Shown here: piece after piece, positions 15,312 through 48,702 of the stretch | Layout: each line of letters opens with the position of its first letter | Position numbering within the stretch: the stretch's first letter is position 1 | Virus record (IMG/VR): IMGVR_UViG_2844225640_000006 | Span: 1-64,000 of that record | From: a virus | Lineage: Duplodnaviria > Caudoviricetes | Length of the DNA: 64,000 nucleotides | Direction: 5' to 3' (one strand) | Position numbers and translations under genes: made by a program | The notes under the pieces: model-generated | What the model saw: only the letters and a program-made list of their open reading frames with translations | Databases searched by the model: none | What the model was told of the DNA's origin: nothing

Positions 15312-15378
15312 GTGGCTTTCTCCTAATTGAAAAGCCCGGCGCTAAGGCCGGGCTTGGTGAGGTTCGGTCAGTTAACGA

Positions 15379-35611: not shown

Positions 35612-35820
35612 TAGCCGAGTTCTCAACCTATCTGCGCATCTTTGACGTGACCACGTTTGTCTCCGCCGCACAAGAACGAGCCAGAAACGAAGGCGTCGAC
35701 GAGAATGACGTCAAAGAAATGTACAACGAGTCCAACTTGGACAATTGCCTCATCATGTTGCTCGATCCATCCACGCTTCCCGGTTGCGAAATCCTCGAAA
35801 GTAACGCCGAGATTGCCTGA
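35608..35820 (+). CDS. Hypothetical acidic protein
   Basis: AAGGAG SD, TTG start overlapping upstream stop. Confidence 0.55.
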   Translation: MIAEFSTYLRIFDVTTFVSAAQERARNEGVDENDVKEMYNESNLDNCLIMLLDPSTLPGCEILESNAEIA

Positions 35821-35856
35821 CACCCCGCCAACTATGGCACCACAACGGAGACTCCC

Positions 35857-36762
35857 GTGAATATCATGACCAATCCTCAATCCGTTTCCTCGGTCCTCGC
35901 CAGCCGCGCGATGATTGTTTCCCTGTCCATCTCGCAATGGTCAGGCCGTCGCCTTGACCGGCAGATCACCGACGAGGTCAACCAGAACCACGGCGCTGCC
36001 GCCGACGCTGGCCGCTACAACAAATTGCTCCTCCCGAAGGAAGCATTGGCGGAAATCGTATCCATCGTCGGCGAAACCCGCTCGGACTTCCTCAAACGCA
36101 CCTTGCCTTGGATGGACAACGGTAGCCGCATCATGGCAAGCGATGCATATTTGCAGCATATGTCATGGGTGCGCGGTCAGGTCGCCAAGTTCGACCGGGC
36201 TGTCGACAAATTCCTCGCTGACTACCCGCAATATGTGGCCGATGCCCGTGTCCGCCTGAACGGCATGTTCAAGGACGACGACTACCCCGACGCTCAAATC
36301 TTGCGCAGCAAGTTCGGCGTTGCCTGCAAGGTTCTTCCGGTCCCCACCTCGGAAGACTTCCGCGTGGACATGAGCCAGGCACAAGCTGACCGCATCCGCG
36401 AGGAGATCGAACAGCAAGTCTCCGACGCCACCACGGAAGCGGTGCGTGATGTTTACCGCCGCGTGGCAGACGTCACAGGACGAATGGTCGAAAGGCTCAA
36501 CGCCTACAAGCCAGCCGGTCGTCCGGGTGACAAGACGGAAGGCGTGTTTCGCGACAGCCTTGTCGAGAATGTGCGCGATCTGATTAGCGTCTTGCCCGCG
36601 CTCAACATCATTGGCGACCGCGAGCTTTCCGCCATGGTCGAACGGCTCAAGCCATTGGCCGAGCACAATGCGTCGACCCTGCGCGATAGGCCGGAGATCC
36701 GCCGCGACGTAGCCGATGAGGCTCAGAAAATCCTCGACAGCGTCTCCGGCTTCTTGGCCTGA
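35857..36762 (+). CDS. DUF3150-like protein
   Basis: SISQWSGRRLD, K.LLP, TLPW...G.R, F...DYP, FRDSLVEN, LPALN; usual neighbour of MoxR/vWA genes. Confidence 0.7.
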   Translation: MNIMTNPQSVSSVLASRAMIVSLSISQWSGRRLDRQITDEVNQNHGAAADAGRYNKLLLPKEALAEIVSIVGETRSDFLKRTLPWMDNGSRIMASDAYLQHMSWVRGQVAKFDRAVDKFLADYPQYVADARVRLNGMFKDDDYPDAQILRSKFGVACKVLPVPTSEDFRVDMSQAQADRIREEIEQQVSDATTEAVRDVYRRVADVTGRMVERLNAYKPAGRPGDKTEGVFRDSLVENVRDLISVLPALNIIGDRELSAMVERLKPLAEHNASTLRDRPEIRRDVADEAQKILDSVSGFLA

Positions 36763-36774
36763 GACAAATAGAAT

Positions 36775-36988
36775 TGCAGGAGCGAGGCGCCCGCTCCTGC
36801 ATTTGGCGTGGCATGGCTTGGTAGGGCGCGGCGGGGCAGCGCATGGCAGGCATGGCATGGCGCGGCGTGGTATGGCTCGGCTTGGCGCGGCAGGCTAGGC
36901 GCGGCTAGGCGAGGCGCGGCGAGGCAAGGCGCGGCGAGGCCGGGCAGGCTCCCACCCAAAAGCCGCCGCTCTCTGAAAAGGGAGCGGC
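36775..36988 (+). ncRNA. GGY-NN pentamer array 1 (candidate guide RNA): 8+8+10 pentamers separated by GGCA
   Basis: Array 36805-36949; 10-bp hairpin 36775-36801 before and 9-bp hairpin 36965-36988 after. Confidence 0.8.
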
Positions 36989-37081
36989 ACCTCAAAGTTC
37001 TCCTCTTCACCGGGGAGCCTTTTGAGGTGTCAGAACGGCACTACGAACCCAATGCAATCATGCATCCAAGGAAACATGTTC

Positions 37082-37759
37082 ATGGCAAAAGCAGCAACCA
37101 AAGTCGAAACCGGAATCACTCTTCCGAAGCTCAACATCCAGCTCATGGAAGTGGTGGTCATCGGCGACTCCCCGCTCATCGTCCACGCTTGGTCTGAAAA
37201 GGCCAAGAAGGAAATGCTGGACAAGCAGTTGAAGGTAGCGAAGGGCGCTCGTGAAGCGAAAGACCCTGTCGCAGACTTCCAGAACACTATGTATCGCTTC
37301 GAAGACGGCGGTCACGGCTTCCCGTCCATCGCCTTCAAGGCGGCAGCTGTCACCGCTGGCACATCCGTTGCGGGACTCACCAAGATCGCAGCGAGACAGG
37401 CGTTTCATATGCTCGGCGAGAACGCCGACATTGCCGGTGCTTTTGATGGGGCGCAGTCCCGCACGAACCTCGTGCGAATCCTCGGCTCCGAACCCCAGAT
37501 GCGTGAAGACATGGTCAGGGTCGGAATGGGCACGGCAGACATCCGCTACCGTGCGGAATACCCGGATTGGCACGCAAAACTGCTCGTTCGCTACAATGCA
37601 AACGTGCTGTCCGAAGCACAGATTCTCAACCTCATCAACGTGGCAGGCTTTGCTGTCGGCGTCGGCGAATGGCGCCCCGAAAAGGACGGCAATTACGGCA
37701 TGTACCATGTCGCCACCGAGAAGGAACTGAAGGCGCTTGGTGTGCAATCACCGGGCTGA
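37082..37759 (+). CDS. Stand-alone Cas7/RAMP-like protein (candidate Vipr-type RNA-guided effector)
   Basis: 225 aa; VVIGDSPLIVH first strand, FPSIAFKAA helix motif, C-terminal Gly loop GVGEWRPEKDGNYGMY. Confidence 0.75.
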   Translation: MAKAATKVETGITLPKLNIQLMEVVVIGDSPLIVHAWSEKAKKEMLDKQLKVAKGAREAKDPVADFQNTMYRFEDGGHGFPSIAFKAAAVTAGTSVAGLTKIAARQAFHMLGENADIAGAFDGAQSRTNLVRILGSEPQMREDMVRVGMGTADIRYRAEYPDWHAKLLVRYNANVLSEAQILNLINVAGFAVGVGEWRPEKDGNYGMYHVATEKELKALGVQSPG

Positions 37760-37765
37760 AACAAT

Positions 37766-37916
37766 ACAGGGTCGCGTTGCCATCGTGGCCCTGTTTAGGC
37801 GAGGTATGGCAGGCAAGGCAGGGCTTGGCTGTGCGAGGCAGGGCGCGGCGGGGCAAGGCCGGGCAGGCTCACCCACCAGCGGCCAAGGGGCAGCATTCAA
37901 CCGCCCCATTTCTTTT
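37766..37916 (+). ncRNA. GGY-NN pentamer array 2: 2+10 pentamers
   Basis: Array 37798-37868; 11-bp hairpin 37766-37794 before; GGGGC..GCCCC and T-tract after. Confidence 0.75.
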
Positions 37917-37942
37917 CAACAACCAACAGAGGAGTAGCTGCA

Positions 37943-38488
37943 ATGGTAAAGATTGCATCTTACGGCTTCGCAGAGGGTTCCCGTTTCCAGAAAGGCGCGA
38001 ATACTTCCGCCCCCGAACTGGTCGGTGAACACCTTGAGACTATCCGCAAGGCGAAAGACGGTAAGCTCACACCCGACGACGTGGTGGCCGACGCTCGTAA
38101 TCCCAACTCTCCGCTGCATTCGTTCTTTGAGTGGGACGATTCAGCAGCAGCTCATGAGCACCGGCTTCGGCAGGCTCGCCAGCTGATCCGCACGATCGTT
38201 GTGCGCTATCAGGAAGTCGAGTCCAAGGAACCGATACGGGCCTATGTTAATGTCCGCTCACCCAACAGTGACAATGGGAATGAACCGGACAGCGATGAAC
38301 CACGTCAGTATTACACCGACACGATCGAAGCGCTCTCTGCCCCTGACATGCGAAGGGCCGTGCTTCTCCGGGCAAAGTCCGAGCTTGACGCTTGGCGCAA
38401 GCGATATGCCGACCTCGAAGAATTGTCCATCGTCGTGCGGACCATCACCAAGATGTCCGAAAAAGTCGGCGAACTGGCTGATGCTTGA
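37943..38488 (+). CDS. Conserved phage protein, candidate accessory of the RAMP/array system
   Basis: G.LTP..VV..AR.P.SPLH..FEWDD..AA...RL.QARQLI; GAGGAG SD; lies between arrays 2 and 3. Confidence 0.7.
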   Translation: MVKIASYGFAEGSRFQKGANTSAPELVGEHLETIRKAKDGKLTPDDVVADARNPNSPLHSFFEWDDSAAAHEHRLRQARQLIRTIVVRYQEVESKEPIRAYVNVRSPNSDNGNEPDSDEPRQYYTDTIEALSAPDMRRAVLLRAKSELDAWRKRYADLEELSIVVRTITKMSEKVGELADA

Positions 38489-38504
38489 ACCCAAACAAAT
38501 AATT

Positions 38505-38612
38505 GGCGTGGTGGGGCAGGCAGGGCTTGGCATGGCAGGGCTTGGCTTGGCCCGGTGCGTCTCGTTTCGGCAGGCAAACACGGGGATTCGTTCGCGGCTC
38601 CCCTTTTCTTTT
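38505..38612 (+). ncRNA. GGY-NN pentamer array 3: 2+10 pentamers
   Basis: Array 38505-38575; GGGGA..TCCCC and TTTTCTTTT after. Confidence 0.75.
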
Positions 38613-38641
38613 CAGCAATCATGCAAACTAAGGAGACGAGC

Positions 38642-39055
38642 ATGAGTGTGCGCAATCTTCCATCGCCTGTTCGATTCCTCCTCATCCCGGTACTCGGCGA
38701 CATCAAAGAGGAACGGTTTACGGTTGCGCCCGCCACGGTGGTTCCCCGTGCCAAACTATTGGAGCATGTGCGGACGTTCTTCGACGAACCAATCGAGCGC
38801 GTGAACGTGCTCTATCGGGGCGAGTACCGCGATATGTTCGTCGGCGAGACGTCGGCCATCAACGGTCGCCACATCCGCAATATCCGGGCGACCGAAGTCT
38901 ACCGGGCAAATGCGCTGGAAAATCACTGGCGTCTCAATTCACCCGACCCGACAAAGGCGAAGCCTATCGATTTGTCGTGGACACTCGACCCTGAAATTCT
39001 ACCGGCCATCTCTGGTCCGGCGGTTCTGTTCCCAGATTATCAAGTGTGGGAATAA
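38642..39055 (+). CDS. Hypothetical protein
   Basis: TAAGGAG SD; ERV.VLY.G...DMFV.E, N.RAT..YR.N, I.GPAVLF. Confidence 0.7.
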   Translation: MSVRNLPSPVRFLLIPVLGDIKEERFTVAPATVVPRAKLLEHVRTFFDEPIERVNVLYRGEYRDMFVGETSAINGRHIRNIRATEVYRANALENHWRLNSPDPTKAKPIDLSWTLDPEILPAISGPAVLFPDYQVWE

Positions 39056-39072
39056 CCCCGAAAGGAAACCCC

Positions 39073-39252
39073 ATGTTCATCGTAGCGTGGTCCGTCAATC
39101 ACGGCGGCAACAACATCGAAGATCATTGGATCGTCGCTGAGACACAGAAACAGGCAGACGCCGAAGCTGCAAAGCTGCAAAAGATCGACAACCTGCACTG
39201 TTGGGCCGTCTCTGAAATCAAAGCAGGCTCCGAGCCTCACTGGCTCTCGTAA
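39073..39252 (+). CDS. Hypothetical protein
   Basis: AAGGA SD, 59 aa. Confidence 0.6.
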   Translation: MFIVAWSVNHGGNNIEDHWIVAETQKQADAEAAKLQKIDNLHCWAVSEIKAGSEPHWLS

Positions 39253-39294
39253 CTCTCAACATCCCGCCAAGCATGGCAAACACGGAGAACTTCT

Positions 39295-40296
39295 ATGAAC
39301 CTCAAGTCCGCAACGACTCTGCTCAACCACTTCATTGACGCCGACATTCCGGCATTCATGTGGGGCCCTCCCGGCGTCGGCAAGTCCGCTTCGCTGCATC
39401 AGATTGTGACCGAGCGTAAATGGGGAATGGTGGACTTCCGCGCTTCGACCCGTGACTCGGTGGCGTTGATGGGCCTGCCTGATATTTCCGGCGAGACCAC
39501 CCGCTGGAAAGTGCCGGACGAATTTCCGCAGGCCGAACGTGACGGCGAGGAAGGCATCCTGTTTCTCGACGAACTGAACGCCGCGCCACCTTCGATGATG
39601 GCGGCAATGTTTGGCCTGGTCCTTGACCGCAAGGTCGGCGACTACGTGCTGCCCAAGGGCTGGCGCGTAGTTGCGGCTGGCAATCGTCAGGCTGACCGTG
39701 CTGCGGCACAGCGTATGCCTACCGCTCTCGCTAACCGCTTCGCTCACATCGACGTCGATGCAGATACGAGCGCCGGACATGACAATGTCCACGTCGAATA
39801 CTTCAATCAGATCGGCGTTGATCCGCAGCTCATTGCCTTCCTTCGGTTCCGTCCGGCACTGATCCATTCGATGCCGAAGAATGATGAGCGTGCGTTCCCA
39901 ACGCCCCGTTCGTGGGAACAGGCGGCGAAGATCCTGAATCTTCCGACGGCACTCCGCCTGCAGGGTGTATCCGCTATCGTCGGTGAAGGCGCTGCGGCTG
40001 AACTGGAAGGATTCCTTCGTGTTTACCAGAACTTGCCTTCGCTAGATCTGGTACTCGCCAATCCGAACAGCGCGCCTATCCCGGAAGACCCGGCGGCTCG
40101 CTTTGCAATCTCCGCTGGCCTTGCCCGTAAGGTTGATGAGCGGTCTTTCGACAACGGCATGGCTTACATGCAGCGCTTGCCTCGTGAGTTCGAGATTATG
40201 ATGTGCGTCGATGCGGTGCGTCGTGAACCGAAGCTCAGCCATACGCAGACGTTCACTTCGTGGGCCATGAGAAACCAAGACGTCACTCTAGGCTGA
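39295..40296 (+). CDS. MoxR-like AAA+ ATPase
   Basis: GPPGVGKS, ILFLDELN, VAAGN, ALANRF, FPTPRSWE. Confidence 0.9.
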   Translation: MNLKSATTLLNHFIDADIPAFMWGPPGVGKSASLHQIVTERKWGMVDFRASTRDSVALMGLPDISGETTRWKVPDEFPQAERDGEEGILFLDELNAAPPSMMAAMFGLVLDRKVGDYVLPKGWRVVAAGNRQADRAAAQRMPTALANRFAHIDVDADTSAGHDNVHVEYFNQIGVDPQLIAFLRFRPALIHSMPKNDERAFPTPRSWEQAAKILNLPTALRLQGVSAIVGEGAAAELEGFLRVYQNLPSLDLVLANPNSAPIPEDPAARFAISAGLARKVDERSFDNGMAYMQRLPREFEIMMCVDAVRREPKLSHTQTFTSWAMRNQDVTLG

Positions 40297-40300
40297 TGCC

Positions 40301-40633
40301 ATGGCAGAAATCCGCGCCATCTTCGGCCCTTACAAGACGGAAGAACAGACCTCGCGCATCACTTGGTTCTTCTCCGGCGTCCGAGCGGACGGGGAGTTCA
40401 CGGCGTGGTCTCTCCGTTTTCAATTCGATACGCGGCGCTATACGTGCCGCGTCATCAAGAACAAGCAGGCAGCAAAGTATGCCGCGTCCATAAGTCATAA
40501 AGACTTGTTCAGCCTCCCCGAAGCAGCGCGGTCGGAAGTCAGTTGTGGCCGCGTGACGGACATGCTCAAGGCCAAGCTTTCACCAGAGCAAATCGCTCGG
40601 GCTACGGCGCTGGCTATACAATACAGGAGGTGA
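40301..40633 (+). CDS. Hypothetical protein, paralogue of next gene
   Basis: IRAIFGPY .. LKAKLSPEQIARATAL. Confidence 0.6.
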   Translation: MAEIRAIFGPYKTEEQTSRITWFFSGVRADGEFTAWSLRFQFDTRRYTCRVIKNKQAAKYAASISHKDLFSLPEAARSEVSCGRVTDMLKAKLSPEQIARATALAIQYRR

Positions 40634-41013
40634 TGATGGCCATCATTCGCAGGGTCTTCGGTCCCTTCCACCCTGAACACATCCATCCGGGCACGCAGGC
40701 TGAGGAGCTGCGATGGCATTTCATCGGCATCAAGGACGACAAGACGACAGCACACTGGACATTGGTCTTTGACCCTCGCAAGCGAACTTATCGGGTCAAC
40801 AACAATACCAGCAGCGGCGGCTTGATTGGCCGCAGCCGAAAGGCATTGATCGCCCAAAAGATAGATCCGGGTGTCAATTGTGAGACTGCTCACCCCGACG
40901 CCTGGCTCGACGACTCTCCAGTCATGGAGGGCACCATCACCAGCATCCTGAAATCGAAACTCTCACCAGAGGATATTGCCAGGGCGACCGCGCTGGTAAT
41001 CGCAAGGAGATGA
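40633..41013 (+). CDS. Hypothetical protein, paralogue of previous gene
   Basis: IRRVFGPF .. LKSKLSPEDIARATAL; AGGAGG SD. Confidence 0.65.
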   Translation: MMAIIRRVFGPFHPEHIHPGTQAEELRWHFIGIKDDKTTAHWTLVFDPRKRTYRVNNNTSSGGLIGRSRKALIAQKIDPGVNCETAHPDAWLDDSPVMEGTITSILKSKLSPEDIARATALVIARR

Positions 41014-41325: not shown

Positions 41326-42483
41326 ATGAAAACCGAAGACAAGATCCTCGCCGCACAGACGTCGCTACTTTGGGACCAGCCATTCTTTGGCGTCCTCATG
41401 CTCCAGCTTAAAAAGGTGCGGGTGGATGACCCGAAGAAGGTCGATACGATGGCGACAGACGGCCGTCATCTCTTCTACCACCCGCCCTTCGTCGATGAGC
41501 TGAAGAAGGACGAGCTGGTTTTCGTGCTGGCCCATGAGGTCATGCACAACGCCCTGGAGCATCACATCCGACGCCAGTCCCGTAAGCCCGGCCGCTGGAA
41601 CGATGCCTGCGACTACGCCATTAACGGCGAGCTGGTCGAATGCAAGGTCGGCAAGATGCCAGAGCGCGGCCTGCTCGAGGCGCGCTTCACCGGTCTTTCA
41701 GCCGAGGAGATCTACCGTATCCTCGACGACGAGAACAACGGCGACGACTCCGCTGAAGGGCAGGGCGATACCGGTGGTTGCGGTGGAACGATGGATGGCT
41801 GCGCACAGCACGACGAGGCAGCCAAGGCCGAGCTGCGTGCCGAGATGCAAACGCAGATCAGGCAGGCTGCCATGACCGCCAAGGCTGCGCAGGCTGGTAA
41901 ACTTCCGGCTGGCGTGCAGCGTATCATCGACGAGCTGCTCATGCCGAAGGTCGACTGGCGGGCTGTTCTCCGCCGCTTCATCGACGAGTCCAGCACCCGT
42001 GATTTCTCATGGTCGAGGCCGAACCGTCGCCTGCTTCCGCTTGGTCTGGTTACTCCGGGCACAGTTTCGGATGGCGTCAGCCATATCGTGATCGCGGTTG
42101 ACACATCTGGCTCGATCGACGAGCCCACGCTCAATGCCTTTGCTGCCGAGGTGCGGGGAGCATTCGAGGAAGGCTCTGTCGACAAGATCGACGTGGTCTA
42201 CTGCGATGCAGCCATCAACCACACAGAGCAATTCGAAATGGGCGACGAGCTGTTCATCCGTGCGGTAGGCGGGGGCGGCACTCGCTTCTCGCCTGTCTTC
42301 GAATGGGTGACCGAGAAAGCAGCCGACACCAAGCTGGTGATCTACCTAACAGACTTGCTCTGCAATGACTTCGGCGACGAGCCGCACTGCCCGGTTATCT
42401 GGGCGCACTATGGAACGAAGAGCCAATTTCAGCAGCTCAGCCCCAACGTTCCGTGGGGTGAGTGCGTACACATCGAGCCTTAG
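41326..42483 (+). CDS. DUF2201-type metallopeptidase-vWA protein
   Basis: TMATDG, HEVMH (HExxH), WN.ACDYAIN, VDTSGS, GGGGT.F.PVF, YLTD. Confidence 0.9.
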   Translation: MKTEDKILAAQTSLLWDQPFFGVLMLQLKKVRVDDPKKVDTMATDGRHLFYHPPFVDELKKDELVFVLAHEVMHNALEHHIRRQSRKPGRWNDACDYAINGELVECKVGKMPERGLLEARFTGLSAEEIYRILDDENNGDDSAEGQGDTGGCGGTMDGCAQHDEAAKAELRAEMQTQIRQAAMTAKAAQAGKLPAGVQRIIDELLMPKVDWRAVLRRFIDESSTRDFSWSRPNRRLLPLGLVTPGTVSDGVSHIVIAVDTSGSIDEPTLNAFAAEVRGAFEEGSVDKIDVVYCDAAINHTEQFEMGDELFIRAVGGGGTRFSPVFEWVTEKAADTKLVIYLTDLLCNDFGDEPHCPVIWAHYGTKSQFQQLSPNVPWGECVHIEP

Positions 42484-42492
42484 GAGGAATAA

Positions 42493-43128
42493 TTGCCCAT
42501 CTTACTCGACCTGACTGGCCAGCAGTTTGGCCGGTTGATTGCTATAGCCAGAGATCCAACCGCACGCCCTACACGCTGGTCATGCAGATGTGAGTGCGGC
42601 AACACGAAAGTCGCTGCCACGAACGACCTCAGGCAGGGGAAAACGAAATCCTGCGGCTGCTTGAGAGTTGAAGTGACCGGGGGAAAGAACCGCACCCACG
42701 GTCTGCGACAGCACCCCCTCTACGATGTATGGCAAAGCATTAAAGACAGGTGCCTAAATCCTAACAATCCTCAGTTCAAAGATTATGGCGGGAGAGGAAT
42801 AAAAATCTGCGATGAATGGGCGCACGATGGCGCTGCGTTCATCGCATGGGCAGAAGCCAACGGCTACCGCGCCGGCCTCATCATCGATCGCGAGAATAAC
42901 AATTGGGGATACAGCCCCGAGAATTGCCGGTTCGTTACGCGGAAGACCAGCAACCGCAACAAGCGGAACACCAACTACATCGACACTCACCTCGGTCGCA
43001 TGATGCTGGCTGAAGCGGTCGAGATCTCCGGCTTGGGCAGGGACACCATCCGACGCCGCTTAAAGTTGGGATGGCCCGCATCAAAGATCCTTCAGCCCGC
43101 CCGAGCGATGAAGAAGAGCAGCAAATAA
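42493..43128 (+). CDS. HNH-like (homing) endonuclease
   Basis: DLTG..FGRL, W.C.CECG, SCGC, RC.NP....YGGRGI..C..W, IDR.NN...Y.P.NCR. Confidence 0.8.
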   Translation: MPILLDLTGQQFGRLIAIARDPTARPTRWSCRCECGNTKVAATNDLRQGKTKSCGCLRVEVTGGKNRTHGLRQHPLYDVWQSIKDRCLNPNNPQFKDYGGRGIKICDEWAHDGAAFIAWAEANGYRAGLIIDRENNNWGYSPENCRFVTRKTSNRNKRNTNYIDTHLGRMMLAEAVEISGLGRDTIRRRLKLGWPASKILQPARAMKKSSK

Positions 43129-45985: not shown

Positions 45986-46077
45986 CCACCCTCCGTCACA
46001 CCTCAACACCCACTGCGATGGCGCTCCTCTCGGGGCGCCATATCGGGGCGTGTTGCCCTTTTTCAACGGAGAACAAT

Positions 46078-47043
46078 ATGAAAAAGTTTAGCATCATCTT
46101 CATCGCATCCCTCGCTCTTTCGACCTCGTCTGCCCTTGCTTCCGATGGCTGCACCGGCAGTGCCACGCTTATGAAGTGGCTTCAGGGTTGCCGCGATCTT
46201 CCGAGCAGCGTGCGGGTTATCGACCACTCCGGTGGCGACCGCACCCCAGGCGCTAAGAGCTCCTCGGGTGGTAACGGTGCAGCCAGTGGCGGAGAGTCCA
46301 GCGCCAATGCTGGCGGCAATTCCGGCGGAACCAGCGGCACTACCAACAACGGCAACTCCGGCGGCTCCAGCAATGCTGGCAACTCTGGCGGCGGCAGCAA
46401 CGGCGGTTCGAACTCCGGCAGCACTGGCGGCGGCAGCAACGGCGGTTCGAACTCCGGCAGCACTGGCGGCTCCACGGGTGGAAACACTGGCGGCTCCGGC
46501 AATTCCGGTGGCGATACTGGTGGTAACTCCGGCGGTGATACCGGTGGGAACAACGGTGGAAACACTGGCGGGGATACCGGCGGTAACACCGGAGGCGGCA
46601 GCGACAACGGCGGCGGCGACACCGGTGGCAATACCGGCGGAGGTGACAACGGCGGTGGCGGTGACACTGGCGGGAACAACGGCGGTGATAATGGCGGTGG
46701 CGACACTGGCGGCGGTGACACTGGCGGGAACAACGGTGGCGACAACGGAGGGGATAATGGTGGCGACACCGGCTCCGGCGGTAACAACGGCGGCCACAAT
46801 GGCGGAGACCACACCGGCAACGGCCCAGGTAATGGCAATGGCAACGGCGGCAACCACGGCAATGGTGGCGGAAACAACAACGGCTCCGGTCCAGGTTCGG
46901 GTAACGGCGGCCACAACAACGGCAATGGCAACGGTAACGGTAACGGCCATGGCAACAGTGGTGGCAATGGTCACGGCAATGGCGGTGGCGGCAATGGAAA
47001 CGGAGGCGGTAATGGCGGTGGCGGAAAGGGTGGCCGCCACTAA
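46078..47043 (+). CDS. Exported Gly/Asn-rich low-complexity protein
   Basis: Signal peptide MKKFSIIFIASLALSTSSALA, two Cys, then a long G/N/S/T/D repeat tract; 39-bp tandem duplication 46385-46462. Confidence 0.7.
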   Translation: MKKFSIIFIASLALSTSSALASDGCTGSATLMKWLQGCRDLPSSVRVIDHSGGDRTPGAKSSSGGNGAASGGESSANAGGNSGGTSGTTNNGNSGGSSNAGNSGGGSNGGSNSGSTGGGSNGGSNSGSTGGSTGGNTGGSGNSGGDTGGNSGGDTGGNNGGNTGGDTGGNTGGGSDNGGGDTGGNTGGGDNGGGGDTGGNNGGDNGGGDTGGGDTGGNNGGDNGGDNGGDTGSGGNNGGHNGGDHTGNGPGNGNGNGGNHGNGGGNNNGSGPGSGNGGHNNGNGNGNGNGHGNSGGNGHGNGGGGNGNGGGNGGGGKGGRH

Positions 47044-47124
47044 CCCATAATCCACACACAACAAGCGGGGCACTTCGGTGCCCCGTCCATCATCCCGCCA
47101 AACATGGCAACCACGGAGATTGAA

Positions 47125-48702
47125 GTGAGCACACTCGTACCCACTGCAACGATCGAACAACTCTGCGCTTATCGCGATGAAGCAATTCGTTTGTACGAAG
47201 AAGCATTTGAGAAAATAGCCGAAGCATCGACCGCCGTCACGAAGGCAGGCTTGATGTGGGAGGCCGCTTCTCCCGGTAAGCCGAGCCGCCATTACGACGG
47301 CGCCGAGGAAGTCAAGGAGTTCTTCCGGGCCGTCAACCTGCCTGACCGTGACCGCTATCTGCGCACCGCGCGCCGTCTCATCGACGTTACCGTATGGACC
47401 CACGTCATCGACATCGCTGGCATCGAACAGCTCATGGACATGCAGGCCAAGAACGAGCTGCGCGACCAGATGAAGTATGTCCCGGAGCGCACCGGCCGCA
47501 ATGGTGAGATCATCAATCAGGATGAGATCGACCGCATGCTGCCGCCCGTCACCCCGGAGAACATCTACGCCACGCTCGAGCGATTCCAAGGTGATGCCGA
47601 GATGATCTTTCGGCGCGGCATCGTCAATGTCTTCACGAAGTTGGACCGTCGCTTCCGTTCGCACGACGGATTCAAGGTCGGCTCGCGCATGATCATCGAT
47701 TACCTGCTGCGCAGCAGCACGCATCTGTATGGTGATCGCGCAGATATGCTGACCGATGTAGAGCGAACGTTCCTCGTGCTCGACGGCAAGTCAGCGAAGG
47801 CCAGCTATGCGGGCATCGTCGAAAAGATCAACCGCGAGAACCCAGGGAAATGGAATCAAGCAGTGCAGTTTGAGGTGGTTTCCGAATACTTCAAGGTCCG
47901 TATCTTCAAGAACGGCAACGCCCATCTCTGGTTCAGCCGCAAGGATCTGGTGAAGAAGGTCAATGAGATCCTGGCCGACCACTACGGCGAGGTGATCGGC
48001 GACGGGATGACGAAGGAGGAAGATCCTCTCAAGAACATCAAGACCACACCGGCTCGCTACTTCGGATTCTACCCCACGTCAGACGCGACTGCCGAAAAGG
48101 TTATCAGCCATGTACGCCTGCTCCAGCGAAAGGACGAGCCCCAGATACGCATCCTTGAGCCGTCGGCCGGGACCGGCAACCTTGCCCGACGCTGCCTTAG
48201 CACCCCGGCTGCCCTCGATAAATGGTCCGGCGGCCGCGACCGCTACATAGATCAGTACCGCATGGACAATGTGGTCGACTGTGTAGAGGTGCAGCCGCAC
48301 CTAGCTCACCAACTCGAGGCACAGGGCGTCTACGGCCGCGTAGTCTGCGCCGATTTCCTGTCGCTCCGGCCGGATTCGTCTCGCCTCTATGACAGAGTAG
48401 TCATGAACCCGCCCTTCGACCGGGAACGGGACATCGACCACGTCGTGCATGCCATCCAGTTCCTCAAGCCGGACGGGCAGCTCGTCGCCATCATGTCGGC
48501 CGGGACTGAGTTCCGGCAGACCGCCAAGTCCATAGCCTTCCGCAAGATGATGGAAGACATGGGCGCAGAATGGACTGATCTACCGCCCAATTCCTTCTCG
48601 GACGTGGGCACAAACGTGAACACCGGGTTCATCTCGGTCTGGAAGAACGGACGTAAGAAAACCGGCCGCTACGACAGACCGACTTGGCCGAAGGTGGGAT
48701 AA
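47125..48702 (+). CDS. DUF4942-like domain plus SAM-dependent (amino) DNA methyltransferase
   Basis: FKNGNAHL.F, FYPT, ILEPSAGTG, VMNPPF, LKP.G.LVAI; GGAG SD favours GTG 47125. Confidence 0.85.
   Translation: MSTLVPTATIEQLCAYRDEAIRLYEEAFEKIAEASTAVTKAGLMWEAASPGKPSRHYDGAEEVKEFFRAVNLPDRDRYLRTARRLIDVTVWTHVIDIAGIEQLMDMQAKNELRDQMKYVPERTGRNGEIINQDEIDRMLPPVTPENIYATLERFQGDAEMIFRRGIVNVFTKLDRRFRSHDGFKVGSRMIIDYLLRSSTHLYGDRADMLTDVERTFLVLDGKSAKASYAGIVEKINRENPGKWNQAVQFEVVSEYFKVRIFKNGNAHLWFSRKDLVKKVNEILADHYGEVIGDGMTKEEDPLKNIKTTPARYFGFYPTSDATAEKVISHVRLLQRKDEPQIRILEPSAGTGNLARRCLSTPAALDKWSGGRDRYIDQYRMDNVVDCVEVQPHLAHQLEAQGVYGRVVCADFLSLRPDSSRLYDRVVMNPPFDRERDIDHVVHAIQFLKPDGQLVAIMSAGTEFRQTAKSIAFRKMMEDMGAEWTDLPPNSFSDVGTNVNTGFISVWKNGRKKTGRYDRPTWPKVG

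Follow-up and report, generated by a model that had tools for sequence, protein, structure and literature searches.

VIPR (Viral Interference Programmable Repeat) systems are described in four 2026 bioRxiv preprints (10.64898/2026.04.26.720920, 10.64898/2026.04.26.720927, 10.64898/2026.10.15.759431 and 10.64898/2026.10.21.760802). As outlined there, the Vipr protein is a minimal RAMP and its vrRNAs consist of 9–16 YNNGG repeats. The variable base pairs (NN), each followed by one skipped base, read double-stranded DNA, and competing phages and satellites are repressed. The preprints distinguish seven types and six families of vap genes. Functional work is reported mainly for type II, from the Escherichia coli phage SUSP1 and a Pseudomonas prophage. 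Two adjacent protomers are described as jointly holding each GGY, with one protomer per repeat; in SUSP1 Vipr, H17 and D177 hold G1, R138 and W178 hold G2, and R179 holds Y3 (10.64898/2026.04.26.720927). The accessory gene vap1 is reported to be required for protection in SUSP1 (10.64898/2026.10.15.759431).

Here we describe a locus of this kind in a 64,000-nucleotide (nt) stretch of DNA, positions 1 to 64,000 of the IMG/VR virus record IMGVR_UViG_2844225640_000006 (Duplodnaviria; Caudoviricetes). We call this whole stretch the window. The locus is very probably a VIPR system of a temperate phage that has inserted into a chromosome of Ochrobactrum type (Brucella sensu lato). As such it is a further example of the published class and not a new class; within that class it is part of a large branch whose arrays are staggered and whose accessory gene is a different one. 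Its core has five parts, given here with array limits from the sequence and a parse into repeat units (ORF, open reading frame; aa, amino acids):

36805-36947, + strand: array 1
37082-37759, + strand: vipr, ORF of 225 aa, RAMP protein, phrog_4652; G-loop GVGEWRPEKDGNYG; residues H35, R157, E196, W197 and R198
37798-37866, + strand: array 2
37943-38488, + strand: vap-like accessory gene, ORF of 181 aa, phrog_15946; invariant motif SPLH.FFEWDD; N-terminal alpha/beta domain and C-terminal helical hairpin
38505-38573, + strand: array 3

An initial annotation, made from the letters without database searches, had proposed this order, strand and set of coordinates, and the sequence and ORF list agree with it. 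It had also likened the locus to the VIPR architecture and suspected that the class might already be named. This was right: the class is published, and the locus shares several VIPR features, namely a RAMP fold, homology to SUSP1 Vipr, the GGY-contacting residues, flanking arrays, an adjacent conserved accessory gene and a proviral location. Two features of type II (the SUSP1 / P. fulva clade), vap1 and separate vrRNAs with structured tails, were not found at the locus, and neither was the SUSP1 tail motif; the missing tail and the non-vap1 accessory gene had escaped the initial annotation.

Compared with the SUSP1 type II locus (vipr, vap1 and four vrRNAs), the window locus encodes a homologous Vipr with the same GGY-contacting residues. 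It likewise has a two-gene core with intergenic GGYNN arrays up- and downstream on one strand, and is likewise phage-borne with 9 to 12 units per guide. The two Vipr proteins share about 23% identity over aligned columns. SUSP1 repeats are mostly GGT, whereas 48 of 53 window repeats are GGC. Each SUSP1 vrRNA is described as having its own leader and a conserved pseudoknot tail, whereas here one putative guide runs into the next, sharing 1 nt at GGCAG|GY, and plain hairpins form the array ends. The accessory protein of the window (phrog_15946) is unrelated to vap1. Finally, SUSP1 is described as obligately lytic (10.64898/2026.10.15.759431), whereas the window phage is temperate and integrated.

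The three arrays parse into 57 units, of which 53 (93%) begin with GGY (48 GGC, 5 GGT); the other four are CGCAT, TGCGA, GTCTC and GTTTC. An earlier count of 46 GGC or GGT units among 50 pentamers (92%) thus had the proportion right and the total too low. The last two bases do vary as had been claimed, with 13 of the 16 possible NN dinucleotides present across the 57 units; AG is the commonest (n = 9) because it is fixed at the junctions described below. The arrays are far beyond chance expectation. When the window was shuffled 100 times with its dinucleotides preserved, a mean of 0.04 chains of at least 4 units arose per shuffle, none longer than 4 units, against seven in-register GGY chains of at least 4 units, up to 11 units long, in the window itself. 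Six of the seven lie within the VIPR locus. The seventh, a 5-unit chain at 15346-15370 (+ strand), was considered as a solo vrRNA and rejected, as it coincides with a GCCCGGC/GCCGGGC terminator hairpin between two minus-strand tail genes. No GGYNN chain was found on the minus strand of the window, and Tandem Repeats Finder (TRF), run on the whole window, reported period 5 at the three arrays only. The view that no comparable array exists elsewhere in the window therefore stands.

On the sequence evidence, the 225-aa protein is Vipr, a minimal Cas7-like RAMP homologous to SUSP1 Vipr with the GGY-holding residues kept. It matches phrog_4652 in PHROGs (function unknown, E 6e-32) and had no match in Pfam, NCBIfam or PADLOC. 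A profile built from 72 diverse homologues (A1) matched PDB entry 36pp_D, "SUSP1 Vipr protein", over nearly its full length (E 2.7e-13, profile positions 20-197). With hhalign, the same profile aligned to the 195-aa ORF of SUSP1 (NC_028808) at a probability of 98.2% (E 3.1e-14, 23% identity, 167 columns). The single sequence also reached 36pp (E 1.4e-3), in the G-loop region, where GVGEWRP aligned to GVGDWRP. In these alignments the counterparts of SUSP1 H17, D177, R138, W178 and R179 are H35, E196, R157, W197 and R198. Among the 72 homologues, R157 and R198 are arginine in all 72, H35 is histidine in 63, W197 is tryptophan in 51, and E196 is glutamate in 60 and aspartate in 12. The D-to-E change at E196 is conservative, and E is the clade consensus. 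In the G-loop GVGEWRPEKDGNYG, residues G189, G193, R198 and G206 are invariant (72/72). This loop is one of three RAMP hallmarks that had been picked out by eye; the other two, an SPL.V strand and a P...FK.A helix, are present as GDSPLIVHAW, which carries H35, and FPSIAFKAA, which carries K86 (invariant in 72/72).

Structure prediction agrees with this assignment. The AlphaFold2 model has a predicted local distance difference test score (pLDDT) of 94.6 and a predicted template modelling score (pTM) of 0.88. Foldseek returned 54 PDB matches at E<=1e-3, and the matches listed are all CRISPR RAMP complexes or subunits (type III Csm/Cmr, type III-D, type VII and Cas7-11). With the profile match to 36pp, this answers the structure-search check proposed in the initial annotation in favor of a RAMP fold. 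The window Vipr also carries a 13-residue insertion, DIAGAFDGAQSRT, at residues 116-128 (37427-37465), where 6 to 33 of the 72 homologues have residues; it sits in the beta-hairpin region of the model.

The backbone RAMPs of class 1 CRISPR systems (Cas7/Csm3/Cmr4-6) belong to the same fold family, with an RNA recognition motif (RRM) core, a G-loop and a thumb-like beta hairpin, and the best structural matches are Csm3-type chains. They too place one subunit per fixed RNA period, which is 5 nt here and 6 there. Class 1 CRISPR-Cas has a repeat-spacer array, adaptation genes and a multi-RAMP effector with a large subunit, whereas TRF found nothing resembling a CRISPR array in the 64-kb window, as had been claimed for canonical arrays. 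The VIPR guide, as published for SUSP1, differs in being non-contiguous and in skipping 1 nt as it reads double-stranded DNA. The six locus proteins matched no PADLOC defence model, in a search not aimed specifically at cas1, cas2, Cas5, Cas6 or a large subunit. The 56 window ORFs annotated with PHROGs are phage genes or have no family, and none is labelled Cas.

Homologues of the window Vipr are numerous, with at least 7825 clusters at 90% identity and 3538 clusters at 50% identity (E<=1e-3). A scan of IMG/VR with the single 225-aa protein gave 64 loci at 38-80% identity, which are not independent because some are near-duplicates. Co-occurrence with GGY arrays, the check suggested earlier, was found in most of them: same-strand chains of at least 4 GGYNN units lie beside the gene in 55 of the 64, at most 600 nt upstream in 5 and at most 1500 nt downstream in 50. 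Same-strand arrays lie elsewhere in 2 of the 64 loci, and one short minus-strand chain is common to 6 near-identical loci. Some of the 9 loci without arrays end early downstream of the gene.

A scan of genome contigs for Vipr homologues gave 3 loci only, and 6 of 401 sampled genomes of the probable host's family have a homologue. The locus DNA had no match in 43 scored genomes of the probable host genus. A phage collection yielded vipr homologues in 34 records (27 Mycobacterium, 5 Gordonia, 1 cyanophage and 1 weak Pseudomonas match) and homologues of the 181-aa protein in 33 (27 Mycobacterium, 5 Gordonia, 1 cyanophage). Both genes have homologues in 32 cultured Mycobacterium smegmatis and Gordonia terrae phage records and in one cyanophage, all annotated as hypothetical; in the 4 of 33 records where coordinates were compared, the vipr homologue is closely followed by the accessory one. 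Mycobacterium phage Brocalys (NC_031262, 32504-33957) is one example. Its gp45 and gp46 are homologues of the two genes, and the intergenic region upstream of them holds a staggered GGCNN array of about 230 nt with ATGGCAGGC junctions.

The pentamer periodicity seen in the initial annotation is real, and one feature of it was overlooked: the arrays are staggered. Four of the 57 units are 4-nt GGCA units, each of which shifts the register by -1. With a unit of only 4 nt, the final G of GGCAG doubles as the first G of the next GGY. Every run in the three arrays ends in GGCAG. Array 1 parses into runs of 9, 9 and 11 units (1a, 1b and 1c); in arrays 2 and 3, a leader of 3 units precedes a run of 11 (2b and 3b):

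36805-36849, + strand: putative vrRNA 1a, 9 units, NN = GT AT TT AG GC GG AG AT AG; 8th unit degenerate (CGCAT)
36849-36893, + strand: putative vrRNA 1b, 9 units, NN = AT AT GC GT AT TC TT GC AG
36893-36947, + strand: putative vrRNA 1c, 11 units, NN = TA GC TA GA GC GA AA GC GA CG AG
37798-37812, + strand: array 2 leader, 3 units (GGCGA GGTAT GGCA), up to the GGCAG|GC junction
37812-37866, + strand: putative vrRNA 2b, 11 units, NN = AA AG TT TG GA AG GC GG AA CG AG; 5th unit degenerate (TGCGA)
38505-38519, + strand: array 3 leader, 3 units (GGCGT GGTGG GGCA), up to the GGCAG|GC junction
38519-38573, + strand: putative vrRNA 3b, 11 units, NN = AG TT AT AG TT TT CC GC TC TC AG; units 9 and 10 degenerate (GTCTC, GTTTC)

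The last G of the terminal GGCAG of 1a, for instance, is the first G of 1b. Run 1c is in addition internally 15-nt periodic (TRF: period 15, 3.9 copies, 90% matches, 36884-36940).

The same structure recurs across the clade. In the window and the 64 homologue loci together, with near-duplicates counted, 166 of 181 phase shifts are of the type GGCAGG[CT]. Junction-to-junction run lengths in this set peak at 10 units (n = 14, 35, 19 and 12 for 9, 10, 11 and 12 units), and a second group of 2-4 units includes 5' leaders and parsing debris. Arrays of this clade are thus staggered, their runs of about 9 to 12 units being set apart by GGCAG|GY junctions, each with a 4-nt GGCA unit. Compared by the legend alone, the -1 phase shifts fit the text on "staggered vrRNA arrays" of other VIPR types in fig. 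S18 of one preprint (10.64898/2026.04.26.720920). It is by analogy with this legend that we infer the GGCAG|G junction to be a vrRNA boundary. The text of that preprint states confirmation by small-RNA sequencing for the ribozyme-interspersed and single-vrRNA architectures and not for the staggered form, which therefore appears to be without experimental confirmation there.

Closely related loci differ in their runs. In one pair (L017 and L018), vipr and the downstream (vap-region) DNA are 100% identical; the third run differs, and the second has one NN change. In another (L030 and L031), vipr is 99.3% identical, two runs are common and the third is replaced. These comparisons suggest that guides turn over as whole cassettes between phages with 99 to 100% identical Vipr.

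The arrays might instead be non-functional simple repeats or parts of reading frames, unrelated to the neighboring genes. GGC-rich repeats can occur in G+C-rich DNA, and mechanical ORFs of 60-153 aa do cross the arrays (e.g. 36808-37197). However, the period is 5 and not 3, the arrays are strand-specific, and shuffled sequence gives chains of no more than 4 units. Arrays also lie beside vipr homologues in the 55 of 64 loci noted above, from Alphaproteobacteria to actinophage, with a conserved junction motif and with GGY kept while NN changes between otherwise identical loci. We regard simple repeats as an extremely unlikely explanation.

The sequences around the arrays have the following predicted structures:

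36775-36801, + strand: strong hairpin then ATTT, immediately 3' of the stop codon of the preceding 301-aa gene and 4 nt 5' of array 1
36948-37031, + strand: structured spacer from array 1 to vipr, GCTCCCACCC, then hairpins at 36968-36985 and 36986-37030
37766-37794, + strand: hairpin then TTTA, after the vipr stop codon and 3 nt 5' of array 2
37867-37917, + strand: 3' end of array 2, GCTCACCCACC (common to the array 1 end), GGGGC/GCCCC hairpin at 37887-37907, then ATTTCTTTTC
38574-38613, + strand: 3' end of array 3, GCAAACAC, GGGGA/TCCCC hairpin at 38582-38603, then TTTTCTTTTC

Arrays 1 and 2 each have a terminator-like hairpin of the preceding gene 3-4 nt upstream. The region of the first (36764-36810) folds at -19.2 kcal/mol (z -2.55), and its palindrome at 36775-36801 is listed on the minus strand in the terminator scan; that of the second (37760-37800) folds at -18.9 kcal/mol (z -3.9). 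The spacer region between array 1 and vipr (36943-37081) folds at -52.8 kcal/mol (z -4.0), and 0 of 200 shuffles fold equally well. Because the spacer hairpins lack a T-run and are followed by the vipr ribosome-binding site, array 1 and vipr may be on one transcript. The motif AAGGAAA lies 7-8 nt 5' of the vipr ATG (37082). The 3' ends of arrays 2 and 3 look like intrinsic terminators, each with a G+C hairpin and a T-run (ATTTCTTTTC, TTTTCTTTTC); the array 2 end is missing from the simple terminator scan because its loop is longer than 8 nt. The array 1 and 2 ends share GCTC[CA]CCCACC. Comparison of the folds and ends found no structured tail common to all three arrays.

The accessory gene encodes a conserved protein of 181 aa. 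It matches phrog_15946 (E 6e-27) and has 196 relatives at E<=1e-5 in a word-indexed search, with 29 invariant columns in the family, including S56-P57-L58-H59, F62-E63-W64 and D66. Its model (pLDDT 86) has an alpha/beta N-terminal domain and a helical hairpin at the C-terminus. Pfam, NCBIfam and PADLOC gave no family, and Foldseek gave no PDB match at E<=1e-3. Several lower-ranking matches were set aside. SopD and zinc-protease rows fell far below the cut-offs. A VIA wide-search match covered the C-terminal helical hairpin only, at Z ~7, which is noise level for helical proteins. The ESM Atlas returned viral hypothetical clusters and winged-helix-type RepA/MarR rows at template modelling scores (TM-scores) of 0.33-0.39, under a usable level. 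That this protein helps silencing is our guess by analogy with vap1 of SUSP1.

If the mechanism described for SUSP1 applies here, the arrays would be transcribed and cut or delimited at the junctions, giving five guide RNAs (1a, 1b, 1c, 2b and 3b). One Vipr protomer per repeat would build a helical filament with GGY hidden and NN presented. The filament would bind double-stranded DNA, reading NNxNNx (1-nt skip), and transcription of a competing mobile element would be repressed, with the accessory protein assisting in some way. The initial annotation had arrived at the same core idea, a constant GGY gripped by each subunit and NN displayed as a non-contiguous guide. This is the cryo-EM mechanism as published, with the refinement that two protomers hold each GGY (10.64898/2026.04.26.720927). 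To this we add an idea of our own: by breaking the 5-nt register, the 4-nt GGCA unit could mark the end of one filament or guide and the start of the next. Such a register break would stand in for the structured tail of SUSP1 vrRNAs.

Cutting of the target, as opposed to silencing, would make the locus a nuclease-coupled, destructive VIPR like published types III to V. Types with predicted nuclease or helicase vap genes are described (10.64898/2026.04.26.720920), and two genes labelled HNH endonuclease by PHROGs lie 3-4 kb downstream of the locus (41326-43128). However, the adjacent accessory protein has no nuclease or helicase match by family or fold, and the published nuclease types are described as enriched in cellular defence islands, whereas the window locus lies in a prophage. 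We consider a destructive system very unlikely here. Silencing by a VIPR system, the reading we prefer, fits the lack of a nuclease signature in the accessory protein.

The prophage assignment comes from the full record of 72,494 bases, of which the window is the first 64,000. The record carries tail, baseplate, capsid-protease, terminase, helicase, primase, methyltransferase and repressor genes. No tRNA genes were found in the window. The ends of the record are marked by three genes:

1-1146: truncated coenzyme A (CoA)-transferase family III gene, host-type
70013-71095 of the record: tyrosine integrase
71550-72494 of the record: patatin-like phospholipase gene, host-type, after the integrase

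With an integrase and host-type genes at both ends, the element is a prophage of about 69 kb. Near-identical proteins are attributed to Ochrobactrum species, Brucella pecoris and Brucella tritici, and a 5.5-Mb genome (G363) from a sample of the host's family shares 89% identity with the host flank. The host is probably Ochrobactrum-type (Brucella sensu lato), judging by these sequence matches.

Several results weigh against a VIPR system at this locus. TM-scores of the Vipr model to CRISPR RAMPs are modest, 0.36-0.48 among the rows listed. The 181-aa protein has no similarity to SUSP1 vap1 (BLASTP E 0.59, hhalign probability 0.06%), and structure searches found no recognizable DNA-binding or nuclease fold in it. 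Rfam gave no match across 35800-39300 at E<=1, and no hammerhead, alongside the missing SUSP1-type tail. A sigma-70-type promoter scan of the locus found 0 sites. Public runs with an RNA label contain parts of the locus only as metagenome contigs, probably DNA; their coverage is of short array-like pieces, mostly at 90-95% likeness, and is uninformative on expression or RNA ends. The 1-nt skip rule itself is described as established for type II systems only. Lastly, we found no convincing natural target for the five guides in the phage's own record, IMG/VR, the VIPR-bearing loci or, for guides 1c, 2b and 3b, 44 genomes of the probable host genus.

Targets were sought by joining NN pairs with one wildcard, following the published 1-nt skip, under which agreement at 80% or more of NN is the mark of a natural target. 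In the own 72.5-kb record, the best matches cover 13-16 of 18-22 informative bases, equal to the null from shuffled guides. Exact scans of IMG/VR gave no match for guides 2b, 3b and 1b. Guide 1c had one exact match, in a reverse-transcriptase-like gene of a low-G+C phage, and guide 1a had one in a giant ORF of an AT-rich phage; both phages are of unrelated kind, and we attribute the two matches to chance since neither host type nor composition fits. In 44 species-representative genomes of the probable host genus, counts of matches with at most 3 mismatches for guide versus reversed-pattern control were 3 versus 0 for 1c, 1 versus 5 for 2b and 0 versus 3 for 3b. This is no convincing excess over controls, and the three 1c sites are unrelated.

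These searches also bear on whether the system acts on the phage's own or host genes, in lysis-lysogeny control or host takeover, and not on rival mobile elements. The searches yielded no rival target, and the locus lies among early/middle genes of a repressor-bearing temperate phage, both of which speak for such a role. Against it, the own-record matches do not exceed the shuffled null, those of guides 1c, 2b and 3b in the 44 host-genus genomes are not above chance, and published VIPR systems are reported to show no self-targets (10.64898/2026.04.26.720920). Control of own or host genes thus seems unlikely to us, and we retain interference with competing elements as the likelier function of this VIPR system.

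When 73 VIPR-bearing loci (415 kb) were searched, one lead to such an element emerged: at L007:2139-2170, minus strand, 19 of 22 informative bases agree with guide 3b. The site takes in the final units of the array of phage L007 itself, together with the 3' flank of this array. Of 1000 shuffles of unit order, 8 attained this score, and of 1000 base shuffles none did, uncorrected for the five guides; skips of 0, 2 or 3 nt did not give it either. We keep the match because some guides are reported to target the repeat-tail junction of rival vrRNA loci (10.64898/2026.10.15.759431); it is a lead, no more.

Taken as one joint proposal, the following is possible but rather doubtful. Guides of this large clade, which extends from prophages of Alphaproteobacteria to Mycobacterium and Gordonia phages, may need no tail, ribozyme or dedicated nuclease site, the GGCA shift ending one Vipr filament and starting the next in a self-punctuating array. 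The same junction may serve as the recombination breakpoint for guide cassettes, phrog_15946 may be an accessory of a fold undescribed for VIPR, and guide 3b may aim at rival array ends.

The locus matters because it lies in a very large branch, with 3538 clusters at 50% identity, that has the staggered array form. The junction motif, the clear guide boundaries and the natural cassette exchange together give a concrete hypothesis for how staggered arrays are parsed. The gene pair is also present in cultured Mycobacterium smegmatis and Gordonia phages, and these are tractable models for its study. Annotators can take phrog_4652 to be Vipr and phrog_15946 to be its accessory gene.

Some neighboring genes are of separate interest. 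The gene immediately upstream of array 1 (35857-36762) weakly resembles DUF3150 (E 1.3e-3, which misses the Pfam cut-off), and PHROGs has no match for it. Downstream of array 3, at a distance of about 0.7 kb, is a gene for a MoxR-type AAA ATPase (PF07728; phrog_1297; 39295-40296). It is followed by a gene for a 385-aa protein of phrog_1314, labelled HNH endonuclease by PHROGs (41326-42483). Two small adjacent ORFs, 40301-40633 and 40543-41013, have nearly the same end motifs (KLSPEQIARATALAI and KLSPEDIARATALVI), which suggests a tandem duplication; PHROGs has no match for the larger. Further along, a 553-aa ORF without a PHROG match (46063-47724, - strand) overlaps dense tandem repeats at about 46300-47020 (periods 12, 15, 24, 36, 39 and 54 nt), and its product is probably a Gly-rich repetitive protein.

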